Part shown: positions 46,909 to 64,000 of the stretch, piece after piece
Position numbering within the stretch: position 1 is the stretch's first letter
Layout: each line of letters starts with the position of its first letter
From: Halarcobacter sp.
GTDB lineage: Bacteria > Campylobacterota > Campylobacteria > Campylobacterales > Arcobacteraceae
Assembly (NCBI GenBank): GCA_963676565.1
Contig: OY781089.1
Location: 2,304,001-2,368,000 of the forward strand
Direction: 5' to 3'
DNA length: 64,000 nt
Notes under the pieces: generated by a model
The model's database searches: none
The model's input: only the letters and a program-made list of their open reading frames with translations
What the model was told of the DNA's origin: nothing
Program-made: the position numbers and the translations under genes

Positions 46909-47184
46909 ATGAACAAAGCTGAATTTATTGATGCAGTTGCAGCAAAAGCTGGTTTATCTAAAAAAGATGCTAAAGGTGCAGTTGACGCTGTATTAGATAC
47001 AATTACTGAGACTTTAGTAAAAAAAGAAACTGTTAGTTTCATCGGGTTTGGTACTTTTAGTACTGCTGATAGAGCTGAGAGAACTGCAAAAGTTCCTGGA
47101 ACAGACAAAACTGTTAAAGTTCCAGCTACAACTGTAGCAAAATTCAAAGTTGGTAAAGCTTTAAAAGAAGCAGTAGCTAAGTAA
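46909..47184 (+). CDS. hup: DNA-binding protein HU
   Basis: MNKAEFI, GFGTF, R.AR..KVPGT, FKVGKALK. Confidence 0.96.
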   Translation: MNKAEFIDAVAAKAGLSKKDAKGAVDAVLDTITETLVKKETVSFIGFGTFSTADRAERTAKVPGTDKTVKVPATTVAKFKVGKALKEAVAK

Positions 47185-47208
47185 TTACTTACTTCTTCAT
47201 ATAAACAT

Positions 47209-47240
47209 AAAAAGGGTCTATCGTAAGATAGGCCCTTTTT
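47209..47240 (+). terminator. Intrinsic terminator of hup
   Basis: AGGGTCTATC-GTAA-GATAGGCCCT followed by a T-run. Confidence 0.88.
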
Positions 47241-47323
47241 TAATTCTTAATTAATTTAATTTTTACTAATTAAACATAAATTAATTAAATAACGGATAAA
47301 ATTTCATCCTTAATTTATTAGGT

Positions 47324-47365
47324 GCCGCTATGGTGAAATTGGTAAACACGCCGGATTCAAAATCC
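47324..47365 (+). pseudogene. 5' half of host tRNA-Leu(CAA), broken at the island junction (att site)
   Basis: GCCGCTATGGTGAAATTGGTAAACACGCCGGA-TTCAAAA-TCC, then unrelated AT-rich DNA; no variable arm, T arm or acceptor 3' strand. Confidence 0.88.
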
Positions 47366-47426
47366 AATGTTTAATTTCACTAGGTATTCGGTAATATAGG
47401 ATATAGATAGTTATTTAGAAATACGA

Positions 47427-47450
47427 GGGTATCACTTATGGGTATCACTT
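47427..47450. repeat. Tandem 11-bp direct repeat GGGTATCACTT (integrase arm-type site candidate)
   Basis: 47427-47437 and 47440-47450, about 65-85 bp from the att core. Confidence 0.7.
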
Positions 47451-47460
47451 TACTTTTTGT

Positions 47461-47547
47461 GCCGCTATGGAGAAATTGGTAGACTCGAGAGATTCAAAAT
47501 CTCTTTTCAGCAATGAAGTGTCGGTTCGAGTCCGACTAGCGGTACCA
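47461..47547 (+). tRNA. tRNA-Leu(CAA), complete, island-borne
   Basis: Acceptor GCCGCTA/TAGCGGT+ACCA, D stem GAG/CTC, anticodon stem AGAGA/TCTCT with CAA, variable arm TTCA-GCAA-TGAA, T arm GTCGG-TTCGAGT-CCGAC. Confidence 0.95.
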
Positions 47548-47678
47548 TTTAAAATTTCGATACTTACACTTTTTATATAAATATTATTTAAACTTGAAAT
47601 ACTATTTCTAATTCTATATAGGAGAGGAAATACTTTAAATAGGCTATTAAAAGAGTAGTATTTTTAAAGGTGTACTTA

Positions 47679-47987
47679 TTATTGCTCTTTAGTTATAAAC
47701 ATTATAAAAGCTGAAATAATTAGAATTGGTACAACTATATAAACTAAGTATACACCAACATAAGATACAGTTGTAACTGTAACCACTGTAAGTATTAAGC
47801 TCAACCAAAATATCATCGAAGCAGTATTATGAATATTTTTAAAACTTCCAAACCCTAACAATCCTAAGATTGTTAAAGCTGGAATTGAAAAGTATGTAGC
47901 ATATACACTAACATAAGAACCTGAACTTAATATTGCAATATATGAGATAAGAACAATGAAAAAAGCTAATCTTATTTTATCTCTCAT
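47679..47987 (-). CDS. Small 4-TM membrane protein
   Basis: Starts 5 nt after the res stop; hydrophobic, with an internal repeat SYVSVY/SYVGVY. Confidence 0.7.
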   Translation of the reverse strand: MRDKIRLAFFIVLISYIAILSSGSYVSVYATYFSIPALTILGLLGFGSFKNIHNTASMIFWLSLILTVVTVTTVSYVGVYLVYIVVPILIISAFIMFITKEQ

Positions 47988-47992
47988 ATTTC

Positions 47993-50938
47993 TTACTTCA
48001 ATATATCACTAATTAACTGTGATAACTCAGGATTGTTAAGTTTAGTTTTGTATTCAACATTTACACCACTTTTTCTTAACTCTTTAAAAAAGGCTTCGGC
48101 ACTTTTAATCTGTAGTTTCTCTTTTGTAGTTATATCATCAAACTTTTCATAGCCTTTAGTTTCAACTACAAAATATAATTCTTTATCATCTTTCGATTCT
48201 ATTACATATCCAAAGTCTGGATTGTAGTTTCTTCCATGAGCTGTAGGAATATTTACTTTTGGTAGTTTTCCAAATACAGTAATTCTTTTATCACTAGATT
48301 CATCTATAGTTATCTTTTCAATAGTACTATCAACTTCCATAAAGTCTTCATTATAGATTGACTTTTCTACTATGTTCTTAGATTTTATTTTATAAGTTTC
48401 AACACCTAAACTACCCTCAGGTATAAATTCTCTAACTTTACCATCTTTGTCAATGAGTGAGGTATTACTAGTCTTTATCTCTTTTAGATCATATGAAATT
48501 TTATTGATTATAGTATCGTAAATAGCACTTACTAATTGCTCTTCAATTTTCTTAAGTGCTAAGTTTTCATTTTGTGGAATCAAATCAAACTTTTCTTTTT
48601 TAATTCCATGTAAAACTTTTGCAACTGTTTGCATACTAAGTTTTGTGTTATTAGATAGTGCTTTAATAAATTCATAAAGAGTAAATATTGAGTGAGTTTC
48701 TACTTTTACAGTATCTTTATCACTATCATACTTTTCACTATCTTCTATATTTTTATCTCTTTTAACAATGATATCTTGCCCACTTATTGTAAAGTTATCA
48801 TCTATCTTCTTTTTAGCCGTATTTATTAATGTAATACTATTAATATCATATTTAACCACAGCATCATAATTTAAATTGTCCCATAAAGCTTTAAACTTTT
48901 TAAAATTCTCTTGATGAATTTTAATTTTACCCTTATCTTTTTTCTTACCACTTCTGTCTTTTGCTTTTACTCTAGTAGATGTTTTAAAGAAGCTATCAAA
49001 ATACTCTTTAAGCTTTTGAGTATCACAACCTTTCATTTCTAAAGACTCCAGTTCTTTTGACTTAGTACTATAATCTTCTTTTGAAATAGTTATTTCACTA
49101 TTACCCTCATCATCAATATCTATGAAACCTTTAGTTTGTAAGTTTGTAAGAATATTAACTGCAGCAAAGGCATTGGCTGCAATTCCATTTTCTGAAATGA
49201 CTTCTGCTGTAAATAATTTTGTTACCTGTTTAATACTATTTTCACTTATCTCTTTTTGAATAGATGTTACAAAGTTTTCTTCTGTCGATGGAACTACTAC
49301 AAAAAGCTCATTTATAAACTCAAAGTTACTGTCTTCTTGAGTAATTCTTTTCCCATCTTGATCTACAGCAAGTCTTAATCCCCTACCTATTTGTTGTAGT
49401 TTTGAAATTTTAGAGTTACTTGGTGCTAATTTACATAGAGTCATTACATTTGGATTATCCCAACCCTCTTGTAAAGCCCATTGTGAAAAAATAAATCTTA
49501 AGTCACTATCAAAAGATAGTAACTCTTCTTTCTTATTTAAAATTAGCTCAATAGCTTCTGCTTCATCGCCCTCTTTTTTAGATTTAGCAAAGTATCCACT
49601 ATGAATTTGGTTTAAACTATCTTTTGTCTTTAGAAGATACTTTTCATAATCTTCATCTAGATCATCTCTTTTTAGTACTTCATTTAGGTTTTTGAGATAT
49701 AACTTTTCAAAAAGTTTTGCTAGTTCACCATTAGTACCCTCATCAGTAAGATACTTATCAACTCTATCTATAAAGAAAAGACAAAGTGCTTTAATATCCA
49801 TTTTAAAAAGCTCTTCTTCTCTTTCAAAATGGTTTTTTATAGCAGTATCAACAATAACCTTTTGCATCTCATCAAGAAGTACACCATAACTTTCACTAAC
49901 TCCTAAAGGTAAAGAGATACCATTGGTAAATAAGGTTTCACTCTTTGTAATCTTTTCAACAACATAACTATTTAGATATTCAATATCTACTTTCTCTCCT
50001 AAATTCTCACCCTTTATAAGTACTGTTTTTTTATTTTTAGAATTGATGTCCTTGTATTCTATAGTTGCTTTATAATCTTTTTGAGTTTTACCTTCTATTT
50101 TAGTAAGAGCAATAGTATGGTTATCTACATTTTCATTTCCAACTGTATCAACTGTAATAGCCTTAACAAGTCCTCTACTAAATGCATCTACACTATCGAG
50201 TATATAAATAAGATTTTTATATTCATCACCTTTAAATGTTGCACCAAACCTTAGTGTAAAAAGAGCATTAAATGCTTTTAAGTATTTTGCAGTTTGTTTA
50301 CCTTCAAATCTATGTGGTTCATCAATTATAATTACAGGTCTAAGATATGAGATAGCTTCCATATAACTTTTTGCACGACCTATAAGGCTTTGCTCTATTT
50401 TACTTTTATTTATATTGTTAGAAGCTTTATTAAATGATTGATACGTTGATACAAGTACTGAAATATTTTGATCACTTGCATTGATATAGTTTAAAACTGT
50501 TTTCTCACTATAGTTATATACTGATATTTGTTTTCCATACTCTTTGACAAAGAACTCTTTTGTAATTTTAATATTTTTAATCGTACCTTGTCGTGTAGGA
50601 TTAGACGGTACTAAGATTATAAACTTTGAAAGTCCATAATCTCGGTTTAATCTATAAATTGATTCTAAAAATGTAAAAGTCTTACCGGTACCAGTTTCCA
50701 TCAATGTATCAACTACAAGTTCATCTTTGATAGATACTTCCCCAATATCTACTTTATTTGACTTTCTAACCTTTTCAATATTATTTACTAAAATACTTTT
50801 AGAATATTCAAGCTCAAAAGACGGGTTACTTTTTCTATTATCATTTTTAGTAAATGATATATTTTTAAATACATCACTTATACTATTTACTGCTTGTTCT
50901 TGATAATCAAGTCTATCAAACTTTATTTTTAAAGACAT
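47993..50938 (-). CDS. res: Type III restriction endonuclease subunit
   Basis: METGTGKT, DEPH, EGWDNPNV, QQIGRGLR, C-terminal NPDF...VETKG nuclease. Confidence 0.95.
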   Translation of the reverse strand: MSLKIKFDRLDYQEQAVNSISDVFKNISFTKNDNRKSNPSFELEYSKSILVNNIEKVRKSNKVDIGEVSIKDELVVDTLMETGTGKTFTFLESIYRLNRDYGLSKFIILVPSNPTRQGTIKNIKITKEFFVKEYGKQISVYNYSEKTVLNYINASDQNISVLVSTYQSFNKASNNINKSKIEQSLIGRAKSYMEAISYLRPVIIIDEPHRFEGKQTAKYLKAFNALFTLRFGATFKGDEYKNLIYILDSVDAFSRGLVKAITVDTVGNENVDNHTIALTKIEGKTQKDYKATIEYKDINSKNKKTVLIKGENLGEKVDIEYLNSYVVEKITKSETLFTNGISLPLGVSESYGVLLDEMQKVIVDTAIKNHFEREEELFKMDIKALCLFFIDRVDKYLTDEGTNGELAKLFEKLYLKNLNEVLKRDDLDEDYEKYLLKTKDSLNQIHSGYFAKSKKEGDEAEAIELILNKKEELLSFDSDLRFIFSQWALQEGWDNPNVMTLCKLAPSNSKISKLQQIGRGLRLAVDQDGKRITQEDSNFEFINELFVVVPSTEENFVTSIQKEISENSIKQVTKLFTAEVISENGIAANAFAAVNILTNLQTKGFIDIDDEGNSEITISKEDYSTKSKELESLEMKGCDTQKLKEYFDSFFKTSTRVKAKDRSGKKKDKGKIKIHQENFKKFKALWDNLNYDAVVKYDINSITLINTAKKKIDDNFTISGQDIIVKRDKNIEDSEKYDSDKDTVKVETHSIFTLYEFIKALSNNTKLSMQTVAKVLHGIKKEKFDLIPQNENLALKKIEEQLVSAIYDTIINKISYDLKEIKTSNTSLIDKDGKVREFIPEGSLGVETYKIKSKNIVEKSIYNEDFMEVDSTIEKITIDESSDKRITVFGKLPKVNIPTAHGRNYNPDFGYVIESKDDKELYFVVETKGYEKFDDITTKEKLQIKSAEAFFKELRKSGVNVEYKTKLNNPELSQLISDILK

Positions 50939-50941
50939 TGA

Positions 50942-52810
50942 TTATCCTCTAAATCTTAATTTATCAGGTTTAATACCAAGCTTTGAAATATTACTTTCAA
51001 GCTCTAGAGTAAATTTATCATCACTTATATTTGGAGAATACACAGTAATATACTCACACTCTTTTTTATCTTTTAAAGCATCTACTAATTCATCAGATGT
51101 TATATCTCCAAGAATAAAGGCTACATTTGACGCAAGATAAAGCTTATCTATTATAAGTTCTTCATGTTTTATACTAAAAGGTAATGCTTCTGCAACAAAT
51201 AGATTATAAAGTATCTCTTCATTAGATTCTATATCAGGTTTTTCCATCATAGCTAACAAATCATCTTGACTTACTTCTTCTAGTGATTTTTGGTAGATTT
51301 TTTGTTTTTGATCTTCTACAATTTCAAAAATTCTAAAACCAATATCTCCATCATTCACTTTATTTCCAGCTCGCATTAACCTTTCTGCTGTAATTTCAAA
51401 AATATTAATAGGTTTATTGAGCTTAGTTAAAAAGTCAATTCTTTTCTTTATAGCTTCTTTTTCTTTTTGAGTCAATCCTGTTGTGTATTCTATTTTTTCA
51501 TCTAGTTGAACTAATATAAATTTTACTTTTTCATCTTTACTAAAAACTGCATGACCTGTTGAGCCAGAACCTGCGAAAAAATCTAAAACAATATCATTGT
51601 CTTTTACATTTGCTATATCTATTAAGTTCTTTATTAATTTAGTTGGTTTTGGGTTTGTAAAAATACCTTTTTCATTTTCAAAAAGTTCTGCAAGTTCATC
51701 TGTAGCCTCTTGATTATTTCCAAATTTATCATGAGCCCACCAGTTTGTAGCACATTGTCCTTCTTGTTCTCTCTCAAATTTAAAATACTTTTTTCTAGGA
51801 AAACCATCACCGTTTTTTGTAAAAATTATTCTATTATCATTTTTTAATTCCAAAAATGTTTTTTCTTCTCCCATCCATGTTTCATTAAATTTTTTTCCTG
51901 TAGGACTTTCAATTATATATTTACTACCATCTTGTCCTTCCCCTGCTTTCCAAGGCTTAGAAGCCCATTCACCTCTAGGATCATTGTCTGGATTTGAAAA
52001 TGTACCTGTAAGACCTATTTTACCTACACCAGATTTTTTATATTCCTCTTTATCTTTTGAATACACTAAAATATGTTCTGTAACCAATGCAATCATTTTG
52101 TTTTTATCATTTGGCTGATTAGAACGTCTTCTCCAATGAATATGACCTTCAAAGTTATCTCCACCAAACACTTCATCACAAAGTAATTTAAGTTGAGCAA
52201 CTTCATTATCATCAATTGATATAAAAATTACACCATTATCTTTTAACAAGTCTTTTGCAAGCAAAAGTCTAGGATACATAAAACTAAGCCATCCACTATG
52301 AGTTTTTGCTCCTTGGATATTTTCTATATAATCTATATACTCTTTATCATAACCAAGTTCTTCAAGTGTTTGCTCAGTTGAAGTAGTAAAGTCATCATTG
52401 TAAACAAAACCATCATTTTTAGTGTTATAAGGTGGATCAATATATATCATTTTAATAGATTCAAAGTAGTTTTGACGAAGTATTTTTAAAGCATCAAGGT
52501 TATCACCTTTAATAAGAATATTTTCTGTTTCATTCCAGTTTTTTGAATCACCTTTTAAAGGCTTTAATACTTTATAGTTTTTTTCAAATGCCTTATGATA
52601 AGCCTCTTTTTTACCAACCCAGTTAAGACCATAGCCATCTTCTCTTATTTCTGCTTTTGAAGGGTCTAGACTCATCTGCAATTTTTGAGGGTCAATAACA
52701 TATTTACCATTTTCATCTACAGTTACGGCATGAGGAAACTGTTTTTTTAATAACTCATAATTTATATCATTTATACTTTGTTCTTTTATAACATTAATTT
52801 TTTTATGCAT
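50942..52810 (-). CDS. mod: Type III R-M adenine methyltransferase subunit
   Basis: YIDPPYNT, HSGWLSFMYPRL, LDFFAGSGSTG. Confidence 0.95.
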   Translation of the reverse strand: MHKKINVIKEQSINDINYELLKKQFPHAVTVDENGKYVIDPQKLQMSLDPSKAEIREDGYGLNWVGKKEAYHKAFEKNYKVLKPLKGDSKNWNETENILIKGDNLDALKILRQNYFESIKMIYIDPPYNTKNDGFVYNDDFTTSTEQTLEELGYDKEYIDYIENIQGAKTHSGWLSFMYPRLLLAKDLLKDNGVIFISIDDNEVAQLKLLCDEVFGGDNFEGHIHWRRRSNQPNDKNKMIALVTEHILVYSKDKEEYKKSGVGKIGLTGTFSNPDNDPRGEWASKPWKAGEGQDGSKYIIESPTGKKFNETWMGEEKTFLELKNDNRIIFTKNGDGFPRKKYFKFEREQEGQCATNWWAHDKFGNNQEATDELAELFENEKGIFTNPKPTKLIKNLIDIANVKDNDIVLDFFAGSGSTGHAVFSKDEKVKFILVQLDEKIEYTTGLTQKEKEAIKKRIDFLTKLNKPINIFEITAERLMRAGNKVNDGDIGFRIFEIVEDQKQKIYQKSLEEVSQDDLLAMMEKPDIESNEEILYNLFVAEALPFSIKHEELIIDKLYLASNVAFILGDITSDELVDALKDKKECEYITVYSPNISDDKFTLELESNISKLGIKPDKLRFRG

Positions 52811-52868
52811 TAATTTTCTTACCTTATATTAAAGTTGATATTGTATTAAAATTCTTGTTATGAGATGA

Positions 52869-53774
52869 TTATAATAAAGCTAATTTATCCATATGTTTGT
52901 TTAAATTAAGTAGAACATCATAAATTTCTTTTGCACAAGAACTATAATCATTTGATTTAATAATTGGTAAACTATTTTCTATTCCTTTAGCTGAATTTCT
53001 AATAGTTATTTTTGTATTTGAATGTGTATCAGACCAAAAAACAACAACTAAAGGAACATCTAAAAGTTTACAAAAATCATCAAGAACACTAAATCTAGTT
53101 GAATCTGCCGTATATTTTTGGATAGACTCTTCCTCTAAGATTCTTCCTTGTGTATCAGACTTATATTCTAAAATAGCTTGAACATTATAGTTTTCATCCA
53201 TTAGAATACCATCAGCATCGCCAGGGAAAGCTATTTTCCATTGATCTCTTGGGATATTTGCCAAGTAATATTCTAATCTTGTAGGAATAAATGTAACTGG
53301 TTTTCGTGTAGCTCTTTTTTCATAATTTTTCAACAGAACTCTTAAACCATCAACATTAATTCTTTTTACTTTTTTTTCTATGTTAATTTTGGGGAATAAT
53401 ATTATTTCCTTCTTTAAAGCATCTTCATCATCTTTTGGATAATTATATGGAGTAAAAACACAAGATAGATCACATTCAAGTTTTTTACTAAATTTTCTAG
53501 CAATATTAAAATCTACTTCTTTATCCATTTCATCAAATAAAATTCGTGCTAAGTCAGCCAACTCTGTATCCTTGACAAGTTCTTGATTATATTCACGACA
53601 ATATAATAATAAAGTTACTCTATTTCCATTTTTAGGAATAACATATCCATCAAAACCAATTATTTTATGCGTTGAATTAATTATTCTCTCCAGTTCTAGT
53701 ATTAAGTTACCTTTAGCAGGTTTTCTTTTATATTTTCTATTATCATGTTCTCTTGTTATTCTTTCATAAAGCAT
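52869..53774 (-). CDS. Hypothetical protein, putative PD-(D/E)XK nuclease
   Basis: GDADG...LEYK motif in the C-terminal half; GGGAG SD. Confidence 0.6.
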   Translation of the reverse strand: MLYERITREHDNRKYKRKPAKGNLILELERIINSTHKIIGFDGYVIPKNGNRVTLLLYCREYNQELVKDTELADLARILFDEMDKEVDFNIARKFSKKLECDLSCVFTPYNYPKDDEDALKKEIILFPKINIEKKVKRINVDGLRVLLKNYEKRATRKPVTFIPTRLEYYLANIPRDQWKIAFPGDADGILMDENYNVQAILEYKSDTQGRILEEESIQKYTADSTRFSVLDDFCKLLDVPLVVVFWSDTHSNTKITIRNSAKGIENSLPIIKSNDYSSCAKEIYDVLLNLNKHMDKLALL

Positions 53775-53791
53775 ATTAAACTTTAACTCCC

Positions 53792-56700
53792 TTATTTGAA
53801 ATATTTATAGCTTCTTTTGTCAAAGGCAGGTCTTGTACCTTCTAAGATATCAACTATACACTGATTGATTTCAGAATCTTCTATAGCTCCACTTTTAACA
53901 GTAAATCTATTATTATCTTGTTTATCAATACTTGCATAAATAATTTGTTCAGCATCTGCAACAACTGCTAGATTGGGATTATGAGTTACCATAATAATCT
54001 GCCGCCTTTTTTTAGCTAACTTTATAAATTTAACAACAATTTTATATACACTCTGATTATCTAAATTATCTTCTGGTTGATCTATAATTAATGGGATTTC
54101 TTCCTTATCAAGCATTAGATAAAATACTAATAGTAATGCACCTTTTTCGCCAGGAGATAACTCAACAAGATTTTTATTATCTAGTTTTAACTCGTAATTA
54201 GGAAGTAGGTAATCTAAATTAAAAAGATACGAATAAAAAGTCTCAATATTATCTACTTGATCAACAATTATTCTAGCTTCACCTTCTCTATCTTCTCTTT
54301 TATCAACTTCTAGATAAGTAATAAGCTCTTCTAGAATATCTTTAAAGTCTTCTTTTAAATCTAGATTCTTTGTTTCTATAATTTCTCTAAGTTTTACTTT
54401 ACCTTCTTCTGAACCATAAAAACTTCCCATTTTGTTTTGCTTAATAAATTTAAAAAAGTCTATCTCAAAACTATTAAGCTTATAAGTTGCATCAATTGCG
54501 ATATTATAATTTGACAGTAATTCTGTATATTGATTTAATGTTATATCAATAGTTTCCTTTAATGATTTAAAGACTTCAACTATTTCGAACTTTTTATCAT
54601 ATATCTCAAGAGATAAGTTAATCCTTTCTTCTCTTTTTTGATTTAAATCACTATCTAAGTCATTTTCAATATATTTTAATTTACCTCTATAATATTTTAA
54701 TGTACCAGTTGTTTCTTCATCACCAATAATTTCTTTACTCTTTTCTTTCCAACTATTAAATTCAGATAGATATTTTCTATACTCCTGTTCTGGTTTAGAT
54801 AACTCTTTTTCTGTAATTGTGATGAACTCTTTTATATTTTCAATATCAACTTTTAATCCTGTTCTTTGATTTTCACTCTCTGATAATATTTCTTTTTTTA
54901 GTCTCGATACCTCTTCATTTTTTGTTTTTATAGTTTCATCAATTTTTGATAAATCACTGTTAATTTTTAGTAAAGCATCAAATTCAAGTGTATACTTATC
55001 TAATAACTCTTGTTTTGATTGCCTAAATTCATTAATTGAAGTAATTAGTCTTTCAAAATCACTCTTTAATGTATTAAGTTCTGAGACTTCTATTAGTCGT
55101 ATCTTAATAGTTTGTTCATAAGATTTTAATATATTTTCTTTTTGTTCTAACTCAGCTTTTTTTTCATTAACACTTTTTATTAATTTTTCTTGTTCTTCAT
55201 CAACTTCACCAGATTGTGAAGGATTAGCTATTTTAATAGGTCTATTTTTTTTATGGTCGAAAAGCTCTTTAAATTTTAATTCATAATTATTTTGTAGAAA
55301 TTCTTTAAAGGATGATAGCTTATGATTTTCTAATTTAATAATCTCTTGATTTATGTTACTTATTTTAGGGATAATTGTTTTAATATCTTCGTTAATGATG
55401 TTAGTTTTTATATCAATTAATTCATCAAAACTATCAGTTCCAAGCTTTTGTTCATCTGGTAAATGTGAAAAAACAACTTTTTTTAAAGCTTTTTCAAATC
55501 CTTCACCTTCTAAATCATTACAAAGCTCTTCAAAATAGTTTTGTGGTAAATATCGTACTCTTTCAGGTCCATTAATATCTGAATTATCGTTTAAGTTAGA
55601 AATAGTTTGCTCTCCAGATTCATAATGTAATGTAGCATTAAAGTTTTCAGCTAACTTTTTCTTTTTAAATTTTCTAGTATTTAAAAAACTAAAGTGATTC
55701 TCTTTGTGACTATTTCCTAGAAGTGCAATAATATCAGACAAAGCACTTTTACCACTTCCTTTATTCCCAATAATTGCTACAAGTTCATTATTTAATTTGA
55801 GGCTTATATCATCAAACCAAATTCCTTTAGAACCATTATAAGTAGCAGTTTTATCTATATTAAGTTCTTTAACATACTTTGTTCTATTATCTTTTACTCT
55901 TTTTAAAACCTCAGGTTCTTCTCCTATAAAAACCCTTTCTTCATATTCATGTATTACTTGCTTTAATCCTTCAAATGTTGGATTCGCTTTAATCCATGTT
56001 AGTGTATTCCCAAGTTTATCTTTATTATCTGATGAACTAAATGAGTGAGCATCACTACAATCTAATAAATATGAATTAACACCCTCATTTTTTAACTTTT
56101 CCTTACTTTTCTCATAGTTTTCTTTACTATCTGTTGAAATAAAAACGAAGTTTGCCTCATTTATTATTGTTTTTTTATCAGTTACTGATCCAGTCCATCT
56201 CATTGCATCCCATTCTGTTTTCCCAACTGCTAACAAAAATTTATCTTTAAAGTAATGAGATTCTAATGCTTTTTTTACTTGATCGTAACTATGAGTAAAA
56301 TTACTAAATCCAACTTTTAAATCTGAACCACTTATTGATACAGTTGCACTTTTTTTGATTTTTTTTCCTAAATCAGATAAAGATTCTTTTGTAATTACTC
56401 CAAAGAACGAGATACTATCTTGATTAAATTCATCAATTGGAGAAAGTGTATAGTTAACTTGTATAGCATTTAAAAATTGACTTTCTATTGTTTCTGCACT
56501 TATTTCATCTGAAAAAATTATATGTAAATTTACTCGCTTCCAAGCTTTATCATCTAGATTACCATACTTATCAATACGAAGTTCAACTACTGGCAGAAAT
56601 AAATCTATATTAGACATCCTTCCTTGACTTTTATATTTCAAAACTTCTTTGTAACCATCCAAAAAAATATAATCATTAATGCCAAGTACTTTTATATCTT

Positions 56701-56836
56701 CAGGTAAACTTTCAATGTCATGAACAAAATTTTCCCAAGCATCACTTGTATCTCCACCATAATGCTGTTCGATTGATTTTGGCGTGTGAACGTGTAAATC
56801 CCATTTTCTCCACTCTGAACCTCTACTAAAACTCAT
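53792..56836 (-). CDS. PHP-domain + SMC/ABC-type ATPase (TrlF family / Ppl-like antiphage protein)
   Basis: GSEWRKWDLHVHTP, SDAH, WIKA.PTFEGL, GNKGSGKS, LSPGEK, IIDQPEDNLDN, THNPN. Confidence 0.9.
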   Translation of the reverse strand: MSFSRGSEWRKWDLHVHTPKSIEQHYGGDTSDAWENFVHDIESLPEDIKVLGINDYIFLDGYKEVLKYKSQGRMSNIDLFLPVVELRIDKYGNLDDKAWKRVNLHIIFSDEISAETIESQFLNAIQVNYTLSPIDEFNQDSISFFGVITKESLSDLGKKIKKSATVSISGSDLKVGFSNFTHSYDQVKKALESHYFKDKFLLAVGKTEWDAMRWTGSVTDKKTIINEANFVFISTDSKENYEKSKEKLKNEGVNSYLLDCSDAHSFSSSDNKDKLGNTLTWIKANPTFEGLKQVIHEYEERVFIGEEPEVLKRVKDNRTKYVKELNIDKTATYNGSKGIWFDDISLKLNNELVAIIGNKGSGKSALSDIIALLGNSHKENHFSFLNTRKFKKKKLAENFNATLHYESGEQTISNLNDNSDINGPERVRYLPQNYFEELCNDLEGEGFEKALKKVVFSHLPDEQKLGTDSFDELIDIKTNIINEDIKTIIPKISNINQEIIKLENHKLSSFKEFLQNNYELKFKELFDHKKNRPIKIANPSQSGEVDEEQEKLIKSVNEKKAELEQKENILKSYEQTIKIRLIEVSELNTLKSDFERLITSINEFRQSKQELLDKYTLEFDALLKINSDLSKIDETIKTKNEEVSRLKKEILSESENQRTGLKVDIENIKEFITITEKELSKPEQEYRKYLSEFNSWKEKSKEIIGDEETTGTLKYYRGKLKYIENDLDSDLNQKREERINLSLEIYDKKFEIVEVFKSLKETIDITLNQYTELLSNYNIAIDATYKLNSFEIDFFKFIKQNKMGSFYGSEEGKVKLREIIETKNLDLKEDFKDILEELITYLEVDKREDREGEARIIVDQVDNIETFYSYLFNLDYLLPNYELKLDNKNLVELSPGEKGALLLVFYLMLDKEEIPLIIDQPEDNLDNQSVYKIVVKFIKLAKKRRQIIMVTHNPNLAVVADAEQIIYASIDKQDNNRFTVKSGAIEDSEINQCIVDILEGTRPAFDKRSYKYFK

Positions 56837-56839
56837 TGT

Positions 56840-58855
56840 CTATTCTCCTAAACTTTTTTTATCTTCTAACACATCCATCATAGAACCATCTACTAAAACC
56901 GTATCTAACTCTTTTTTAGGTTTAATATTTGACACTTTCTTTAACATGGTTACTTGACTTATCAAATTACCACGCCCACCACTAAGCTTTTTAAATGCTT
57001 CATCATAGTTAGTTCTAGCAGTTTCAAGTCCTTTATCTACTTTCTTTAAATCATCTATAAATCCATGGAACTTTTTATATAGTTCTTCTGCCCTTTTATA
57101 CACATCTGCAATATTCTGTGCTTGTCTTTCATATCTCCACGTATTTTCAACTGCTCTTAATGCTACAAGAAGTGTAGTAGGACTAACTAATATAATCTTT
57201 TGTTTAAAGGCTTCATCGTATAAATTAACATCATTATCTAGTGCTAAAAGTAAAGCTCCTTCTATTGGCACAAACATAAATATAAAGTCTAAACTATTTA
57301 CATTTTGTAAATCTTCATACTTTTTATTTGCAAGCCCTTTGATATGATCTTTTACAGATTTAATATGATTCTTAAGATATATTTGTTTAAGACTATCATC
57401 TTCTTCTGCCATATAATCATTATAAGCTGTAAGTGATGTCTTCGCATCTATAATAATATGTCTATTGTCAGGTAAATACACAATTACATCAGGTCTGAAA
57501 GGTTTATTTTCATCATCTTTTAAACTAACTTCTCTTTTAAATTCATGTCCTTCTCTTAGCCCTGAACTCTCAAGTACTTTTTCAAGTACCATTTCACCCC
57601 ATTTACCTTGCTTCTTACTATCACTTCTTAGTGCATTTGTAAGGTTATGAGCTTCTGCACTCATTTTTTGATTTAGTTCTTTTAGTGTTTTTAGTTCTGC
57701 AGAAAGTAGACTTCTATCTTTTGCTTCTTTATCATATACATCTTCAACTTTCTTTTTAAAATCTATAAGCTGTGCTTTCATAGGATTTAAAATTAACCCT
57801 AAATCTTTTTGATTTTGTTCACTAAATTTTTTACTATTATCAGTGAAAATTTTGGTTGCTACATTTTCAAATTCCAGTTTTAATTTTTCTTCACTATTAT
57901 GTAATATTTGTAATTTCTCTTCTATAGCTTTTTTTTGTTCTTCAAGTTGAGTTTGCAATTGAGATATAGTAGCATTATCTTTAGTTACTTGAACTTGTAA
58001 CTCTTTTTTATCATCTGTTAATGTATTAATTGTTTGTTTTAGATCACTGATATATGATTCTTTATCAGATAATATTTTTTTAGTATTTTGTACACTTTCA
58101 TTTACTTTTGTTTCTAATTCAGATATCTCTGATTTATATTTCTTTATCTGTTCGTTATAATCTGAATTAGTTGATTTTAAAGTTTGACTTTCATCTTTTA
58201 ACTCTTCAATTCTTTTATTTAAAGAAGTAGACAGTTCTGTATTTTTTTCTTTTTGCTCTTCAAATGAAGTTTTATATTTTGATAAGTCTTCTTTTAATTG
58301 TCCTATTTCTAAAGACTTACTTTCATTTAACTCTTTCAACTGTATATTTTCATTTTTTAACTCTTCAATTCGTTTATTCAAAGAGCTAGATAACTCAATA
58401 TTCTTTTCTTTTTGTTCTTCAAACGAAGTTCTATATTTTGATAAATTTTCTTTCAATTGCCCTATCTCTAAAGACTTATTTTCCTCAGAATCTTTTAACT
58501 GTATATTTTCATTTTTTAAATCATCAATTCTTTCAGTTTGTGACTTTTCAAAGGCATTATATTTATTTATCTGCTCATCGAGTAAAGCTTTTGTTTTTGT
58601 CAAATCTTCTTTAAATTGATTTGATTCTTGCTTTTTTTCCTCTAGCTGTTTAGAAGATTCATTGTATAAATCTTTTATATTATTAGCGTTATTAAGACTC
58701 ACAGTTAACTCTGAGTTTTTTATCTCTAAATTTTGTCTATCATTTGATAAATCTTTAATCTCAGTATTCTTATCTTTAACTGTTTTATAAAATAATAATC
58801 CTCCTATAACTAATATAGCTGAAAACAATGCTACCAGTACTTCAAAGTTTTCCAT
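56840..58855 (-). CDS. rmuC: RmuC-family protein with extended coiled coil
   Basis: N-terminal TM, QGKWGE, RPDVIV.LP..IIIDAK, FMFVPIE, SPTTLLVALR. Confidence 0.9.
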   Translation of the reverse strand: MENFEVLVALFSAILVIGGLLFYKTVKDKNTEIKDLSNDRQNLEIKNSELTVSLNNANNIKDLYNESSKQLEEKKQESNQFKEDLTKTKALLDEQINKYNAFEKSQTERIDDLKNENIQLKDSEENKSLEIGQLKENLSKYRTSFEEQKEKNIELSSSLNKRIEELKNENIQLKELNESKSLEIGQLKEDLSKYKTSFEEQKEKNTELSTSLNKRIEELKDESQTLKSTNSDYNEQIKKYKSEISELETKVNESVQNTKKILSDKESYISDLKQTINTLTDDKKELQVQVTKDNATISQLQTQLEEQKKAIEEKLQILHNSEEKLKLEFENVATKIFTDNSKKFSEQNQKDLGLILNPMKAQLIDFKKKVEDVYDKEAKDRSLLSAELKTLKELNQKMSAEAHNLTNALRSDSKKQGKWGEMVLEKVLESSGLREGHEFKREVSLKDDENKPFRPDVIVYLPDNRHIIIDAKTSLTAYNDYMAEEDDSLKQIYLKNHIKSVKDHIKGLANKKYEDLQNVNSLDFIFMFVPIEGALLLALDNDVNLYDEAFKQKIILVSPTTLLVALRAVENTWRYERQAQNIADVYKRAEELYKKFHGFIDDLKKVDKGLETARTNYDEAFKKLSGGRGNLISQVTMLKKVSNIKPKKELDTVLVDGSMMDVLEDKKSLGE
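58195..58532 (-). repeat. In-frame 159-bp (53-aa) tandem repeat inside rmuC
   Basis: RIDDLKNENIQLK...SSSLNK / RIEELKNENIQLK...STSLNK / RIEELK; DNA period 159. Confidence 0.85.
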
Positions 58856-58890
58856 TAATATCTCCTAATTATAAATTATCACATTATATT

Positions 58891-58924
58891 TTAAGTAAGT
58901 CACCTAGTTAGGTGACTTACTTAA
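58891..58924. promoter_or_regulatory. Perfect 16-bp inverted repeat (terminator or operator)
   Basis: TTAAGTAAGTCACCTA-GT-TAGGTGACTTACTTAA overlapping the jetD-like stop, next to a minus-strand TATAAT at 58883-58888. Confidence 0.7.
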
Positions 58925-59788
58925 GTATTCTTGTTCAAGTGTGATTTTTCGATTTTTTATAAAATCTATAAGTTCCTTTAATTTTACATCATTTTTTGAG
59001 TCAATATTTAAATATCTTGTTTGGTTGGAATAGTCTTTTTTATAATTCTTTTCTACCATTATTTTATAAATATTTTCAGGAATCAAAAAAGAATGTGATC
59101 TGCAATGTCTAAGCCTAGGTAATATAGAGTTAAGATAAATATTTATACCCGCTAAATCAAAATCACCAAAATGAATATACTCTCCTTTAAAGGACTCCAG
59201 CCATTTGTATTGGAAGGAAGTCTTAAATTCACTAAGAGACAAAAATATATATTGTTTATCTTGATTAAAAAGGTGTCTATATCTATTTATAAACCAAACA
59301 ACTTGAGGATTTTCTACACCTACTAAAACAATATCATTATCCAATTCTAATTTAGTACTATAATGCATAAATAAGCCTGTACCTTCTATAGGATAGATAT
59401 ATTGTTTTACTCCATTTAAAGTAACTTCTATCTTCTCAAATACACTAATCATAAGTCCGTTAAAGCTTTTTGATTCTATTCTTTTAGTATCTGAGAATTT
59501 TTCAGCGACTTCATCACGACTTTTTGATTTTTCACTTTCTTCAATAAAATAGTCTATATCTTCTATACAATTAATGTTATAACCATTTGATTTTAGAACT
59601 GCAAATAAAGTATTTATATCTTTTAAATACATACATTGTGGCTTTCCATCTATATCTATTGCATTACACTCTTTAAGTGAATTTATAAGTTTTTGAGAAG
59701 ATATCTCTTTTTTTAATATATATTCATCTTTTAAAAGTTTTTTTAGTGCTTCAAAATTTCTTGTATTAATATTTATAGCCATTACCAT
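58904..59788 (-). CDS. jetD: Wadjet JetD/MksG-like Toprim nuclease
   Basis: VGVEN, HFGDFDLAGINIY, terminal LEQE; follows the SMC gene. Confidence 0.8.
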   Translation of the reverse strand: MVMAININTRNFEALKKLLKDEYILKKEISSQKLINSLKECNAIDIDGKPQCMYLKDINTLFAVLKSNGYNINCIEDIDYFIEESEKSKSRDEVAEKFSDTKRIESKSFNGLMISVFEKIEVTLNGVKQYIYPIEGTGLFMHYSTKLELDNDIVLVGVENPQVVWFINRYRHLFNQDKQYIFLSLSEFKTSFQYKWLESFKGEYIHFGDFDLAGINIYLNSILPRLRHCRSHSFLIPENIYKIMVEKNYKKDYSNQTRYLNIDSKNDVKLKELIDFIKNRKITLEQEYLSKSPN

Positions 59789-62700
59789 TCATCCATAGCA
59801 TTTTGTGCATCTATAAGACTTAGCTCAACATGATTTGAGCTTTCTCTTGTTCCCATATATATTCTAGGATATGCATCAATAATATCGTCATCATTTGCAG
59901 CAGTTCCATTGATAAATACAAAATCCAATAATTTTGCATAATTCATAAGTTCAGTAAAGTAATCTGCAGATATCTGACCAATTTCATCAATAATACAATG
60001 ATATTTTATGTTCTCGCTATTGGCAAATTTCTTTGTAACCATACGTAATAATGTTATATAAATAATTGCTTTTACCATTATTGATGTTCCGTTACTACCT
60101 ATATTATCTAATGTTGCAATACCTTTTGTAACCTGGTTGTTTTCACTTACATCAAAAGTTAATGTACTTATATCTGAAACAGTAATATTCTTTTTAAATG
60201 TTCTTTCTAATATTACTTGAAGATCTTGAGCTATTTTTACTAATTCATCTTTTACTGATTCTGATCTTTCGCTATTTTCATAGCCAATAAGCATATTTGC
60301 ACTTAACATATCACCTATGTTTTCAATTCTACTGACAATTTCATCATTACCTATATTTCTGAAATTTAACTTGATAAAATCAATCACTGTAATATTTGTA
60401 ATACCATCATTAATAGTTGAATTAATTTTATTTACATCTTTTACAATACTATCAAATGTGCCTTTGATATGGGATATTCTACTAACAGCATCATTTATAG
60501 TTTCAATTAGAATATGTAACTGTAAGCTTGTTCCTTCAATATCAAATTTTGTTTTGATAAAATCTGAGTATGATTTTGCAATTACAATATACTGTTCGAT
60601 ATTATCATCGAAACTATTTATATCAGATTTTGATTTGAGCTTCATCATATTATCACTAGGAATATCATCAACAATTCTTCTAGTATCAAGTTTAATTGTT
60701 TTTTCTTTTTCATCTTGTTGTATTTCAAGAGTTTTGTATCTCTCTAAAAGAGTAATATTTTGTTTAGAGTTCAAGAGAGATACAACCTCTTTTTCGATAT
60801 AAGAATCATAGTTTATATTAGTAGTTATTTCAAATTGAGATAATGCATTTTTAAAATCTTTAAATGATCTGGCATGAGATTTCCAAATATTTATAGAATC
60901 CTCTAATTGCTTTAACACACCACCAATAACTTTTAATTCTTTTTCATAATAATCTTTTTCTTCAGTTCTTTGTTTATCTGTTTGCACTAACTGATCTTTT
61001 AATAAAGGGATTTGATTATAATTAGGTAATACTTCATCATCATATCTTTTAACTAAACCTTTATTATCTTGTATCTCTTTTATAGTTTTTGTTAATTGTT
61101 TAATTGTCTTATTATAAGAATCAAGTTCATCAGTATCAATATTCTGACTTCTTTTAATTTCATTATATATTTCATGTATCTTTTTATCTGACTCGTTGAC
61201 AAGGTTTTCATATTTTTTATTTATCGATTTAATGCTATTTTTACACAAAGAAAATTGAGCATTTAAATCCTTTTCTTTCCCCTCATATTTTGCATTTATC
61301 TCTTGAATAAAAGTATCTTTTTTTCTTTTCTTAGTAGAGATATATTCTATTAAAGTAGTTAAGCTTTCTCTGTCTTTTAAAAGTTGTTTCTTTGTTTCAA
61401 TTATTCTTTTATCATTTTCATCTTTTAAACGTGCTATCTCTTCATCTAATCTTCTTTGCTCATTTGCTATTTTTATCTCATAATCTTTAATTTTAGGACT
61501 TAAGTCATAAATTTCTCTTGACTTTTCTTTTATTGATTTTTTAAATTTATTAGATGAAGATTTTAGATTATCTTCAAGTCTTTTATATCTTATCTTATGA
61601 TTTGACACTAACTCATTTAGTTGTTTTTGAAGTGCTGTTTTATTATTCTCAAGGGTTTCTATATCATATTTACTTGCCATTGTTTCAATATCACCGTCAA
61701 TCACTAAACCATAAAAATTATCATTGCTAGTTTCAAGCGAAAACTTAAAGTTTTTTTCTTCAAATAAAATTTCATCATTTGCTATAGCTAAAATCTTTCT
61801 TTTATTTGGAACTTCATTTTTATTTAGAAAACCAAAAAGGTTGTTTTTTCCAATGTCTAATTTTTTATTAACTAACTCTATTTTCTCTTTTAGCTTACTT
61901 TTCTTATTGTTATATTGGCTAACTTCATCTTGAATTTTTTTATTAAGCTCTTCAAAACTAGCATCCCTTTGTTTTTCAAGTTCTAACTTTTCACTCTCTA
62001 ATACTTCTATACTTGATTCAATCGAACCTTTTAAAGTTATTAATCTATTAATCTCTTTTTCAAATTTAATAGAAGCATTACTCTCTAACTTTTGAGATGG
62101 TAATAATCTTAAAGTAGTCTCATCTTCTGATATTTTTTTATCTAATTGGTTATACTTAGTTGTTTTTAGTTCTATTTCTTCGTCAAATGCATTTATACTA
62201 TTTTTAAGCTCAACCTCTTTGTCCTTTGATAATTGTAGTATTTCTTCTGCAAGTTGTTCTTTTTTTTCTTCTAGTTGTATTTTTTCTTCTTCTTTTTTAC
62301 TATTAAAAGAAATTCGTTCTTTTTGTTTTTCTGTTTCCTCTTTAATATCAAGTTCTTCAAGGCTACTAGAAATTGCAACTACTTTAATTTCTAGATTTTT
62401 TTTCTGCTCTTCATATTTATTTTGTTTACTATCTTCTTCTATTAATCTTTCAATTTTATATTCATCAATAAATTTATTGTATGTAGTTTCATTACTTTTG
62501 ATAGTTTTATTAAGTTCTGCAATTTGATCGTTGTAATTAGTAGACTTTTTATCCCATTCATTCGACAACTTTTCACTTTTTTCAGTCTCTATCTTCTCTT
62601 GAGCATATAAATCTAGCTGTTTTGTTTCTATTACTTCACTTATTATATCTTTATTATAAGACATTGTTTCAAGTTCAAAAACAGTTTTATCTATTTCACT

Positions 62701-63504
62701 ACATAATGCTCTATAAGAAACAATAGTTTCATCAAGTTCTAATATTTTTTCTCTTCTGTCTTTTATTAATTCAAAATGTTCTACATTTTTCAAGGCTTCA
62801 TCTAACTTATGTTTAAAACTTGATATATCTAAAGAATACTCTTTTTCTCCAATTAAAGAAATAAGCATATCTTTAATACCTCTATCTCTAACTGAAGAAT
62901 TTGAATATATATTAAATAAATATTTACCAAATAAACTTGCAGACTCTTCACTATCATATAGTGAAAAATCTAACTCAGATTTATCTTTACTTGGTAACAT
63001 TTTATAACTTTTTCTACACATCATTTTTCTAAAAGTAGGAACAGTTTCACTTTTGTAATATGTTAAACCATGTTTTAAACAATTTGACAAAATCTCTTTT
63101 AGATTTAAACTTCGATTGTTCTCATCGAGATATAAAATACTTATGTCTTCTTGAAAATTATGTATATTTATAAAAATATGTTTGATTGATTTTCCATCTT
63201 CTTTACTTAATAAAAGAAGATTCTTTCCTATCTTATTTTCATAAACATAAATCAAATGAGAGTAACTACCTTCAATATGCCAATCATAAAAAGTTTTCTC
63301 TTTTGGAATAGGTCTTGTTTTAAATTTATCCATTGTATAAAAGTAACATATAGCACTCATAACAGTTGTTTTACCTACACCAGAACTACCAAGTAGCAAA
63401 GTAAAATCATCAATGATTATTTTTTCATGAGGGAAGTGTCCACTATTTATAAATCTTAACTCTTTTAAGCCTAATTGATTATAACTCATATTCAACATCC
63501 TCAA
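59782..63504 (-). CDS. jetC: Wadjet JetC/MksB-like SMC ATPase
   Basis: Walker A GSSGVGKTT, long coiled coils, SNGTS signature, Walker B IIDEIG; start probably 63489. Confidence 0.85.
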   Translation of the reverse strand: MRMLNMSYNQLGLKELRFINSGHFPHEKIIIDDFTLLLGSSGVGKTTVMSAICYFYTMDKFKTRPIPKEKTFYDWHIEGSYSHLIYVYENKIGKNLLLLSKEDGKSIKHIFINIHNFQEDISILYLDENNRSLNLKEILSNCLKHGLTYYKSETVPTFRKMMCRKSYKMLPSKDKSELDFSLYDSEESASLFGKYLFNIYSNSSVRDRGIKDMLISLIGEKEYSLDISSFKHKLDEALKNVEHFELIKDRREKILELDETIVSYRALCSEIDKTVFELETMSYNKDIISEVIETKQLDLYAQEKIETEKSEKLSNEWDKKSTNYNDQIAELNKTIKSNETTYNKFIDEYKIERLIEEDSKQNKYEEQKKNLEIKVVAISSSLEELDIKEETEKQKERISFNSKKEEEKIQLEEKKEQLAEEILQLSKDKEVELKNSINAFDEEIELKTTKYNQLDKKISEDETTLRLLPSQKLESNASIKFEKEINRLITLKGSIESSIEVLESEKLELEKQRDASFEELNKKIQDEVSQYNNKKSKLKEKIELVNKKLDIGKNNLFGFLNKNEVPNKRKILAIANDEILFEEKNFKFSLETSNDNFYGLVIDGDIETMASKYDIETLENNKTALQKQLNELVSNHKIRYKRLEDNLKSSSNKFKKSIKEKSREIYDLSPKIKDYEIKIANEQRRLDEEIARLKDENDKRIIETKKQLLKDRESLTTLIEYISTKKRKKDTFIQEINAKYEGKEKDLNAQFSLCKNSIKSINKKYENLVNESDKKIHEIYNEIKRSQNIDTDELDSYNKTIKQLTKTIKEIQDNKGLVKRYDDEVLPNYNQIPLLKDQLVQTDKQRTEEKDYYEKELKVIGGVLKQLEDSINIWKSHARSFKDFKNALSQFEITTNINYDSYIEKEVVSLLNSKQNITLLERYKTLEIQQDEKEKTIKLDTRRIVDDIPSDNMMKLKSKSDINSFDDNIEQYIVIAKSYSDFIKTKFDIEGTSLQLHILIETINDAVSRISHIKGTFDSIVKDVNKINSTINDGITNITVIDFIKLNFRNIGNDEIVSRIENIGDMLSANMLIGYENSERSESVKDELVKIAQDLQVILERTFKKNITVSDISTLTFDVSENNQVTKGIATLDNIGSNGTSIMVKAIIYITLLRMVTKKFANSENIKYHCIIDEIGQISADYFTELMNYAKLLDFVFINGTAANDDDIIDAYPRIYMGTRESSNHVELSLIDAQNAMDEW

Positions 63505-64000
63505 TAATATCTTCTACGAATTTAAATGATCTTAGTATTAAAAATTCTTCTTCCCTATTACCAATACTTTCAGCAAAACCATCATTTTTTAATCTTGTGA
63601 TGATTGAATCTATAGCTTCACGATTAGTTGACCTTTTCTTTAAAAAACTCATTTTATCAATCATTGCTTTTAATTCTATATCTCCATTTAACCTAGTTTC
63701 CATGTCACTTGCACTATACGGACCTGCATCTGATGAACCAATATCGCTATTTAACAATTTTAAAAATCTATATATATCAATATAGTCAACATAACCATTA
63801 GAATAAGGTTTGGGAATATTTTCATAAATATCAATAATAAAATAAAAAAAGCCTGTATCTGATCTTAATGTATATCCTATGATGCTATAATAATCTTTTA
63901 CATCTTGCTTGTATTGGTATATAAAATTGTATGCTTCTTTAATTTTATAATCTGAACTATTTTCATTAATGAATTTACCATTTACTCTACACTCTTCAAT
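63479..64000 (-). CDS. jetB: Wadjet JetB/MksE-like protein (5' end outside the window)
   Basis: Frame is open to the window edge: ...GKFINENS...DYYSIIGYTL...GFFYF..., an MksE-like pattern; directly upstream of the SMC gene. Confidence 0.7.
   Translation of the reverse strand: MEECRVNGKFINENSSDYKIKEAYNFIYQYKQDVKDYYSIIGYTLRSDTGFFYFIIDIYENIPKPYSNGYVDYIDIYRFLKLLNSDIGSSDAGPYSASDMETRLNGDIELKAMIDKMSFLKKRSTNREAIDSIITRLKNDGFAESIGNREEEFLILRSFKFVEDIIEDVEYEL

Follow-up and report, generated by a model that had tools for sequence, protein, structure and literature searches.

This study concerns a tRNA-Leu(CAA) locus in a 64,000-nucleotide stretch of the genome of Halarcobacter sp. (contig OY781089.1, positions 2,304,001 to 2,368,000; family Arcobacteraceae, phylum Campylobacterota), which corresponds to C1:2304001-2368000 of the source genome G000 and is called the window below. 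Behind the hup gene, whose synteny is conserved in 23 of 24 genus relatives, the window contains a 5′ part of a tRNA-Leu(CAA) gene, a 95-bp spacer, a complete tRNA-Leu(CAA) gene, and then the body of a genomic island that continues beyond the window (Table 1). The 5′ part consists of the acceptor strand GCCGCTA, the D arm and the sequence CCGGA-TTCAAAA-TCC, directly after which AATG follows. No tRNA was called by ARAGORN in this fragment, and none was detected there by Rfam at E ≤ 1. The complete tRNA, which lies inside the island and is cognate to the interrupted gene, obtained an Rfam tRNA score of 53.9 bits, as compared to 62.2 bits for the host-type gene of the closest relative found (G010), with the gathering score being 29. 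According to the ARAGORN calls the genome contains 49 tRNA genes, among which the island gene is the only one with the CAA anticodon, and tRNA-Leu(UAA), tRNA-Leu(UAG) and tRNA-Leu(GAG) are encoded by one gene each.

Table 1. Features of the split tRNA-Leu(CAA) locus and of the island. Positions are those of the window, unless marked as genome positions.
Feature	Position	Strand	Remarks
hup, HU-type DNA-binding protein, 91 aa	46909..47184	+	Pfam PF00216, E 1.1e-29; left flank of the site
hup terminator hairpin	47209..47240	+	sole terminator-like site within 47100-47700
tRNA-Leu(CAA) 5′ part, 42 nt	47324..47365	+	host side of attL; read from sequence
attL copy of the 13-bp common core GGATTCAAAATCC	47353..47365	+	anticodon loop and 3 bp on each side
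Spacer, 95 bp	47366..47460	+	read as P′ arm of attP; two direct GGGTATCA repeats
GGGTATCA repeats in the spacer	47427-47434, 47440-47447	+	candidate arm-type integrase sites
Complete island-borne tRNA-Leu(CAA)	47461..47547	+	ARAGORN; sole tRNA called in the window
Island body	47548..64000, continuing to genome 2388253		
Open reading frame (ORF), 102 aa	47679-47987		island body
Type III restriction subunit	47993-50938		island body
Type III methylase	50942-52810		island body
Ppl-like ATPase	53792-56836		island body
RmuC	56840-58855		island body
DUF7281 protein, 294 aa	58904-59788	-	
SMC-like DUF3584 protein, 1240 aa	59782-63504	-	
WYL regulator, LHH nuclease and SUKH partner, HerA-like ATPase, dynamin-like GTPase, AbiEii	beyond window		
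DUF932, Gam-like and Rad52-like proteins	beyond window		recombination module
Tyrosine integrase, 430 aa	genome 2386742-2388034	-	PF00589; about 220 bp inside attR
attR copy of the core GGATTCAAAATCC	genome 2388254-2388266 (window position 84254-84266)		beyond window; direct repeat

A whole-genome search with this region gave a second match about 36.7 kb downstream. There, at the far end of the island, the missing 3′ half of the gene begins with aattGGATTCAAAATCC followed by GGTG at genome position 2388254, and it comprises a host-type variable arm, the T arm, the acceptor strand and ACCA. The two copies of the 13-bp core are separated by 36,901 bp, which gives an island of 36.9 kb. When the two flanks were joined in silico across the core, an 85-nt tRNA-Leu(CAA) was obtained, which was identical to the intact G010 gene at 84 of 85 positions. 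The identity between attL and attR is confined to the 13 bp, and hence neither junction rebuilds the tRNA gene; in the 700 bp that run from the integrase through the core to the 3′ half, no tRNA was called by ARAGORN on the tRNA strand. The displaced segment does not regenerate the target, as it would in a classical tRNA-restoring island. In the tyrosine integrase encoded beside attR, residues R245, K272, H340, R343, H367 and Y376, as well as much of the N-terminal domain, were invariant in six aligned homologues, and the attB reconstructed from the flanks overlaps the tRNA gene. The G+C profile showed no contrast between the island and its flanks, with the window having about 27% G+C. An earlier note on this DNA, made from the sequence of the window, had described the 5′ half that ends after the anticodon loop, the full tRNA 95 bp further on, and the compensated D stem and AGAGA/TCTCT anticodon stem of the latter; all these details were correct when compared with the sequence and the ARAGORN calls, and the 3′ half and tyrosine integrase that the note advised looking for at the far end were both present beside the second core.

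The carried tRNA resembles the host type closely in some parts and differs from it in others. The acceptor strands are identical (GCCGCTA/TAGCGGT), the T stem is the same with one change in the T loop, and one pair of the D stem is altered in a compensated manner, from GTG..CAC to GAG..CTC. The anticodon stem is AGAGA/TCTCT in the island tRNA and CCGGA/TCCGG in the host type, and the variable arm is also different, while the 7-nt anticodon loop is that of the host. The fragment and the full tRNA are co-oriented, without a terminator-like site between them. The region 47241-47323 is conserved in G010 and in another relative (G014), and the promoter region of the host tRNA must lie between the hup terminator and position 47323. 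Besides the two GGGTATCA repeats of the spacer, two further copies in the same orientation are located 138-160 bp inside attR (genome 2388094 and 2388116), and in the whole genome of 3.34 Mb there are only 24 + 29 copies of this sequence. The four repeats, which lie on the island side of both cores, would be the arm-type sites of the integrase; pairs of such sites flanking the core have been described for phages (Guerrero-Bustamante and Hatfull 2024, PMC10865867).

The empty site is represented by G010, which has a 96% identical flank, and in which hup is followed by one intact tRNA-Leu(CAA) and then by the right flank of G000 (89% identity). The fragment, the spacer and the AGAGA tRNA were all absent from the G010 site, so that the comparison with an island-free relative, which the earlier note had named as a possible refutation, came out in its favor. 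Directly to the right of attR, G000 and G014 have an extra 855 bp (genome 2388313-2389168), with a 255-aa ORF that belongs to no known family, and this stretch was absent from G010. Either a small separate indel or what is left of an earlier insertion at the tRNA gene's 3′ end could account for it.

A comparison of the hup loci of 19 genus relatives showed a single intact tRNA in 12 of them, no tRNA in five, and the split-and-replace layout in two, G014 and G007. In the latter two the host 5′ part is cut after the 11-bp sequence GATTCAAAATC and is followed by an 89-95-bp spacer and a full tRNA-Leu(CAA). The spacers contain two direct repeats each, GGACAC in G014 and AGGACGCTTT in G007. At the far end of the G014 island, which is about 24.6 kb long, the 3′ half was found behind CCGGATTCAAAATC, adjoining an integrase 40% identical to that of G000. 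This island encodes ParA, a TrwC relaxase, a TrwB-type coupling protein, McrBC and a Schlafen-like helicase, and the presence of the relaxase and coupling protein indicates that it is a mobilisable element. In G007, the 3′ half was not found in a genome-wide search, and the 20 kb that follow the tRNA contain one defence-like gene and then ordinary genes, but no integrase. Judged by this gene content, G007 probably has a decayed island whose tRNA became the resident gene, the alternative being an assembly gap. The fact that G007 keeps the fragment and the replacement tRNA, with the integrase and the 3′ half not found, is consistent with the suggestion of the earlier note that this arrangement could make the island end hard to delete.

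Other genomes and sequencing runs gave further variants of this site. In G020, hup and the 5′ region of tRNA-Leu(CAA) occur twice (C17:5747-6131 and C18:504376-504760), as might result from a duplicated locus, from an island whose sequence is divided between contigs, or from an assembly of two strains. Assembled contigs (Logan) of run X3 contain a diverged copy of the fragment, spacer and tRNA. A contig of run X2 is identical to 47150-47362 and departs at 47362, inside the anticodon loop, into unrelated DNA, and it may represent a third insertion type at the same site in another strain.

The integrase was used to follow the layout through the family. Homologues with E ≤ 1e-25 were found in 24 of 184 Arcobacteraceae genomes, and in 11 of these they were near full length with at least 39% identity. 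The replacement layout, that is the fragment, the spacer and the full tRNA, was present in 7 of the 11 genomes, with both ends seen in G000, G014, G077, G079 and G176, and the attL end only in G082 and G097. The islands of G077, G079 and G176 are about 54.6 kb, 22.4 kb and 23 kb long, respectively. In these cases, which were found through their integrases and not pre-selected for spacing, the tRNA was co-oriented with the target and located about 80-110 bp from the core. Hence, the same layout with related integrases occurs in at least seven species of the family, which are Arcobacteraceae according to their record titles. The single contig of G093 showed the classical arrangement instead, with an intact tRNA, a 16.4-kb island, an integrase and a displaced 3′ half that shares an identity block of about 60 bp, and without any extra tRNA-Leu(CAA) between the tRNA and the displaced half. 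The comparison of G093 with the seven replacement genomes indicates that one integrase family uses both modes. The integrases of G153 and G195 had no link to tRNA-Leu(CAA) in the regions examined.

Two further members of the family gave more complex pictures. The integrase of G105 is 90% identical to that of G000 and has the same GGGTATCA repeats beside it. This genome was considered as a classical rebuilding relative and rejected, because an empty site (C15) and an attR (C9) occur together in its assembly, with right flanks that are nearly identical. The assembly thus seems to be a mixture of strains, in which the mode of the island is ambiguous. In G082, hup is followed by a fragment of the GGCTCTG type (C72, L190, minus strand, about 1480-1750 of the reverse complement), which is the type of the island tRNA in other members of the genus to which G082 belongs, with GCCGCTA being the host type in G077 and G079. 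This hints at a serial replacement, in which an island inserted into the tRNA of an earlier island.

These data are best explained by an integrase island that split tRNA-Leu(CAA) via the 13-bp core without rebuilding the gene, the loss of which would be covered by the tRNA carried on the island. We put the probability of this explanation at about 0.87. It draws on the sequences of both halves and of the core, on the integrase and the arm repeats, on G010 with its empty site and on the recurrence in related islands, and the halves, core, integrase and empty site likewise support the claim of the earlier note that the island ships a whole cognate tRNA and does not restore the gene. The tyrosine integrase would recombine through the core, composed of the anticodon loop and three flanking base pairs on each side, which would leave the 5′ part at attL, behind hup, and place the 3′ half at attR, next to the integrase and 36.9 kb apart from the 5′ part. 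The loss would then be covered by the complete tRNA-Leu(CAA), which the P′ arm of attP carries at a distance of 95 bp from the core. Because the carried tRNA is co-oriented with the target, it occupies the place of the host gene, downstream of the host promoter region. Such a mechanism presumes that the integrase is active, and that the island tRNA is transcribed from the host promoter, as the earlier note had proposed, expressed and charged. Precise excision would restore the host gene.

Several observations weigh against this explanation. A consensus scan, not tuned to the phylum, gave no sigma-70-like promoter on the plus strand in the region 47100-47700. The 11-bp GATTCAAAATC is kept in every carried tRNA, and it constitutes the whole common core in G077 and G079, so that the core by itself gives no clear sign of immunity to the integrase. 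In four 99%-complete genomes of the genus (G019, G024, G011 and G008), in which hup has no tRNA after it, neither a 5′-half query nor a D-arm/loop pattern revealed a tRNA-Leu(CAA); the genus may include species that lack this isoacceptor. Moreover, G000 has a tRNA-Leu(UAA), and tRNA-Leu(UAA) may read UUG. Since tRNA-Leu(CAA) was not found in the four congeners, the compensation may be an effect on fitness and not on survival. Compensation is the most economical reading, because every short-core island has the cognate tRNA, whereas the classical relative lacks it.

The apparent lack of tRNA-Leu(CAA) in the four nearly complete congeners and the presence of tRNA-Leu(UAA) in G000 could also mean that the split is real, while the carried tRNA is not compensatory. 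The tRNA-Leu(CAA) would then be dispensable, and the island tRNA could serve codon supply for island genes, counter defences that target tRNAs, or be a hitch-hiking remnant of a captured target. In E. coli, strains without leuX are viable. Anti-defence roles for phage tRNAs are raised in the discussion of the study of actinobacteriophages (PMC10865867). We regard this possibility as unlikely, since the carried tRNA has the anticodon of the destroyed gene and adjoins the core in 7 of 7 short-core islands of the integrase family, while G093, with its classical arrangement, has no extra copy, and the decayed island of G007 kept the tRNA where its integrase and 3′ half were not found. The anticodon loop is also the same as in the host, and not altered as for nuclease evasion. 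Loop changes in tRNAs were reportedly linked to such evasion by van den Berg in 2023. Because the 7-nt loop is unchanged, the suggestion of the earlier note that the replacement might resist anticodon nucleases is without support.

It is much less probable that the island integrated in the classical way at the gene's 3′ end, in which case the AGAGA tRNA would be the host gene, the upstream 5′ fragment an unrelated relic, and a far repeat the displaced fragment. Such a repeat of the 3′ end of the island tRNA does exist (29 bp, 97% identical, genome 2388281-2388309), and this is what an automatic island finder would report. The fragment at the far end, however, reaches up to the anticodon loop with a host-type variable arm and stops at the shared 13-bp core, the two halves rebuild the gene of G010, and the empty site in G010 contains neither the spacer nor the AGAGA tRNA. 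In addition, the repeats at 47427 and 47440 would fall outside an island of this kind, yet they match those beside the integrase. That the fragment is a decayed tandem duplicate unrelated to the island is hardly credible: tandem tRNA-Leu(CAA) pairs do exist elsewhere (L101), but here the fragment ends exactly at the core that is repeated at the far end, it matches the single gene of G010 and not the adjacent full tRNA, and its matching 3′ half adjoins the integrase.

The layout in which the split gene is replaced by a carried one was also found outside the family. One genome each of 185,579 species was scanned for two GATTCAAAATC motifs 105-135 bp apart, which gave 111 stretches, of which 80 loci were examined; the tRNA spacing at these loci is fixed by the search pattern, and the taxa are as labelled in the sequence records. 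A 5′ fragment of tRNA-Leu(CAA), a 78-104-bp spacer and a full tRNA-Leu(CAA) were present at 10 of the 80 loci (nine distinct, as L074 equals L104). These belonged to Aliarcobacter vitoriensis, metagenome-assembled genomes (MAGs) of Aliarcobacter, Poseidonibacter and Paraglaciecola, Sedimenticola, a Cellvibrionaceae strain, two Bacteriovoracaceae MAGs and a Planctomycetota MAG, which places the layout in Gammaproteobacteria, Bdellovibrionota and Planctomycetota besides Arcobacteraceae. The Paraglaciecola fragment is cut in the T loop, and the Planctomycetota fragment extends past the anticodon stem. Eight loci had a full tRNA with a motif copy downstream, six of them with recognisable 3′ halves, as expected for classical scars, one locus (L101) was a tandem pair of full genes, and at the other 61 loci both motifs lay outside any tRNA called by ARAGORN. 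In the Poseidonibacter MAG, the island tRNA and the GGACGCTTT repeats are those of G007, although the host fragments differ, with the acceptor strand GCCTCTA in the former and GCCCGTA in the latter, which indicates that the tRNA travels with the island. When the G000 integrase was compared with five genomes from the motif scan, a single weak match was obtained (G043, 28% identity), so that the other taxa use other integrases, or none that are detectable with the G000 query.

The scan also returned arrangements of other kinds. Long tandem arrays of GATTCAAAATC were seen in MAGs of Verrucomicrobia/Akkermansiaceae (L036, L046, L106, L099 and L072), where dozens of copies follow each other with a period of about 198 bp, and likewise in L067 and in small contigs of Lactococcus petauri; ARAGORN called no tRNA in these arrays. 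In a Gammaproteobacteria MAG (L081) and in Leptospira weilii (L043), a full tRNA-Leu(CAA) is followed by two partial copies of the 3′ half at a spacing of about 110-135 bp, which look like stacked scars of repeated classical integrations.

The carried tRNAs of the family share a change at the edge of the core. In 10 of 10 Arcobacteraceae cases seen, which come from only three or four lineages, position 29 (pair 29:41) differs between the target and the carried tRNA. The island tRNA of G007 matches the host type of G013 throughout the acceptor stem, the D arm, the anticodon loop and the T arm; the differences are confined to the variable arm and to pair 29:41 (G:C to T:A). In the 5′ part, the target and island tRNA of G082 differ only at position 29 and at one base of the D loop, while the anticodon stems of the host and island tRNA in G176 have different bases in pair 29:41 and at position 42. 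The host and island tRNAs of G000 and G014 are distinguished by pairs 27-29. Outside the family, G29 is kept in L062, L102 and L073. Both known attB sites of the G000-type integrase, in G000 and G105, have GGATTCAAAATCC, with the stems differing further out. The earlier note had proposed that the changed anticodon stem makes the carried tRNA unsuitable as an integration target. The consistent difference in pair 29:41 agrees with this proposal, and the retention of the 11-bp GATTCAAAATC speaks against it, so that the pattern is suggestive only. Judged from these sequences, the 29:41 swap and the new variable arm would keep the carried tRNA from serving as a second att site. The likeliest reason for the recoding would be that it avoids integrase-mediated deletion of the P′ arm between the two loops.

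The proteins encoded by the island were classified using Pfam, PADLOC for defence systems and PHROGs for phage families. None of the proteins scanned belonged to capsid, portal, tail or lysis families of Pfam or PHROGs, and the only phage-related signal in PHROGs was a weak P-loop match to terminase. No relaxase family was detected among the scanned proteins of the G000 island, which include only a HerA/FtsK-like ATPase, and hence it does not have the makeup of an integrative mobilisable or conjugative element, nor, with a cargo of defence systems, that of a temperate phage. The G000 element is an integrative defence island and not a prophage. Two of its gene clusters are observations in their own right. 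A minus-strand operon (58904-63504, continuing to genome 2369225) encodes the DUF3584 and DUF7281 proteins, with upstream ORFs of 188 and 392 aa that belong to no family; the operon had no match in PADLOC, and it may be an uncatalogued Wadjet-like or SMC-type defence system. On the same strand, a 1004-aa HerA/FtsK-like ATPase, a 151-aa ORF and a 746-aa dynamin-family GTPase are clustered at genome 2371536-2377315, adjoined by the LHH nuclease and its SUKH-family partner (L003:2524-3523), and this cluster with its LHH-SUKH neighbors is a candidate defence or toxin-immunity module.

The closest known parallel is the tRNA-dependent lysogeny of actinobacteriophages, which was demonstrated experimentally (Guerrero-Bustamante and Hatfull, mBio 2024, PMC10865867). 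As defined in the text of that study, these phages have a tyrosine integrase, an attB in a tRNA gene and a core of about 10 bp, the tRNA gene is not rebuilt, and a cognate tRNA encoded by the phage is required. The examples given there are Fionnbharth (K4), cluster L, Cain (K6), BrutonGaster/OneUp and Mollymur, as well as Gaia, which integrates at tRNA-Leu-CAA. The system described here shares the tyrosine integrase, the attB in a tRNA gene and the carried cognate tRNA, with a 13-bp core (8-17 bp in the phages) and no functional tRNA at attL or attR, and the pairs of putative arm-type sites that flank its core also have counterparts in the phages (PMC10865867). Rebuilding relatives exist in both cases, as Boilgate compared with Fionnbharth and Omega compared with Gaia (PMC10865867) parallel G093 here. 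The carriers are different, however, being a defence island in G000 and a mobilisable element in G014, and the hosts are Campylobacterota. The carried tRNA described here has the orientation of the target, lies at a distance of about 80-110 bp from the core and is a near-copy of the target type, while the tRNA of Fionnbharth is located elsewhere in its genome, overlaps gene 37, has its own demonstrated promoter, and is described as not closely related to that of the host (PMC10865867). Hence, the logic is the same as in the phage system, but in the absence of phage families it is not a lysogeny system.

Substitution of the target tRNA has also been described for other elements. The discussion of the actinobacteriophage study cites the Lactobacillus johnsonii prophage Lj965 as failing to rebuild or substituting its target tRNA, and expects a wider occurrence (PMC10865867), and in phage-related sequences of Sinorhizobium meliloti the target tRNA was substituted by a carried one (PMC11476347, PMC12429752). 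As described in these sources, both are phage-derived, unlike the islands here. With classical tRNA-gene-targeting genomic islands, such as those in the Islander database (PMC4383910), the G000 island shares the tyrosine integrase beside one att site, the tRNA target, the crossover region in the anticodon loop and the displaced fragment at the far end. A classical island regenerates the gene by means of the displaced 3′ part that it carries, whereas here the identity is limited to 13 bp and there is no regeneration. An anticodon-loop sublocation class of tRNA-targeting islands is said to have been defined by Williams in 2002. In a literature search with incomplete coverage of subscription journals, no account of a replacement tRNA in non-phage islands came to light. 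The principle as such was already published in 2024 for mycobacterial phages. What looks new is the non-phage carrier, the placement of the tRNA, which follows the host promoter region and belongs to the P′ arm of attP, and the near-copy tRNAs with pair 29:41 swapped. In addition, the sequences of one family present the empty, occupied, classical and decayed states side by side.

The recoding also leads to a more tentative idea, which we consider possible rather than probable, that the integrase, the short-core attP and the tRNA form a portable cassette, whose tRNA is a copy of the natural target made unusable as an att site. The minimal change would then be the 29:41 swap at the core's edge, in many cases accompanied by a new variable arm. 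If this were true, non-phage islands could colonise tRNA genes without a long identity block, with integrase-mediated self-deletion and tandem pile-up prevented and the attL end anchored. A decay such as that in G007 would amount to a permanent exchange of the host tRNA gene for a foreign allele, which would be a general route of horizontal turnover of tRNA genes.

The split-and-replace strategy described here is not confined to phages or to Actinobacteria. An island finder that relies on an intact tRNA and a repeat of its 3′ end would put attL about 180 bp off its true position at this site, and would take the foreign tRNA for that of the host. The empty site, the two intact islands with 40% identical integrases, the classical relative and the decayed island constitute a natural comparison set, which could show how integrases tell the target from the carried tRNA, and how tRNA genes are exchanged horizontally.

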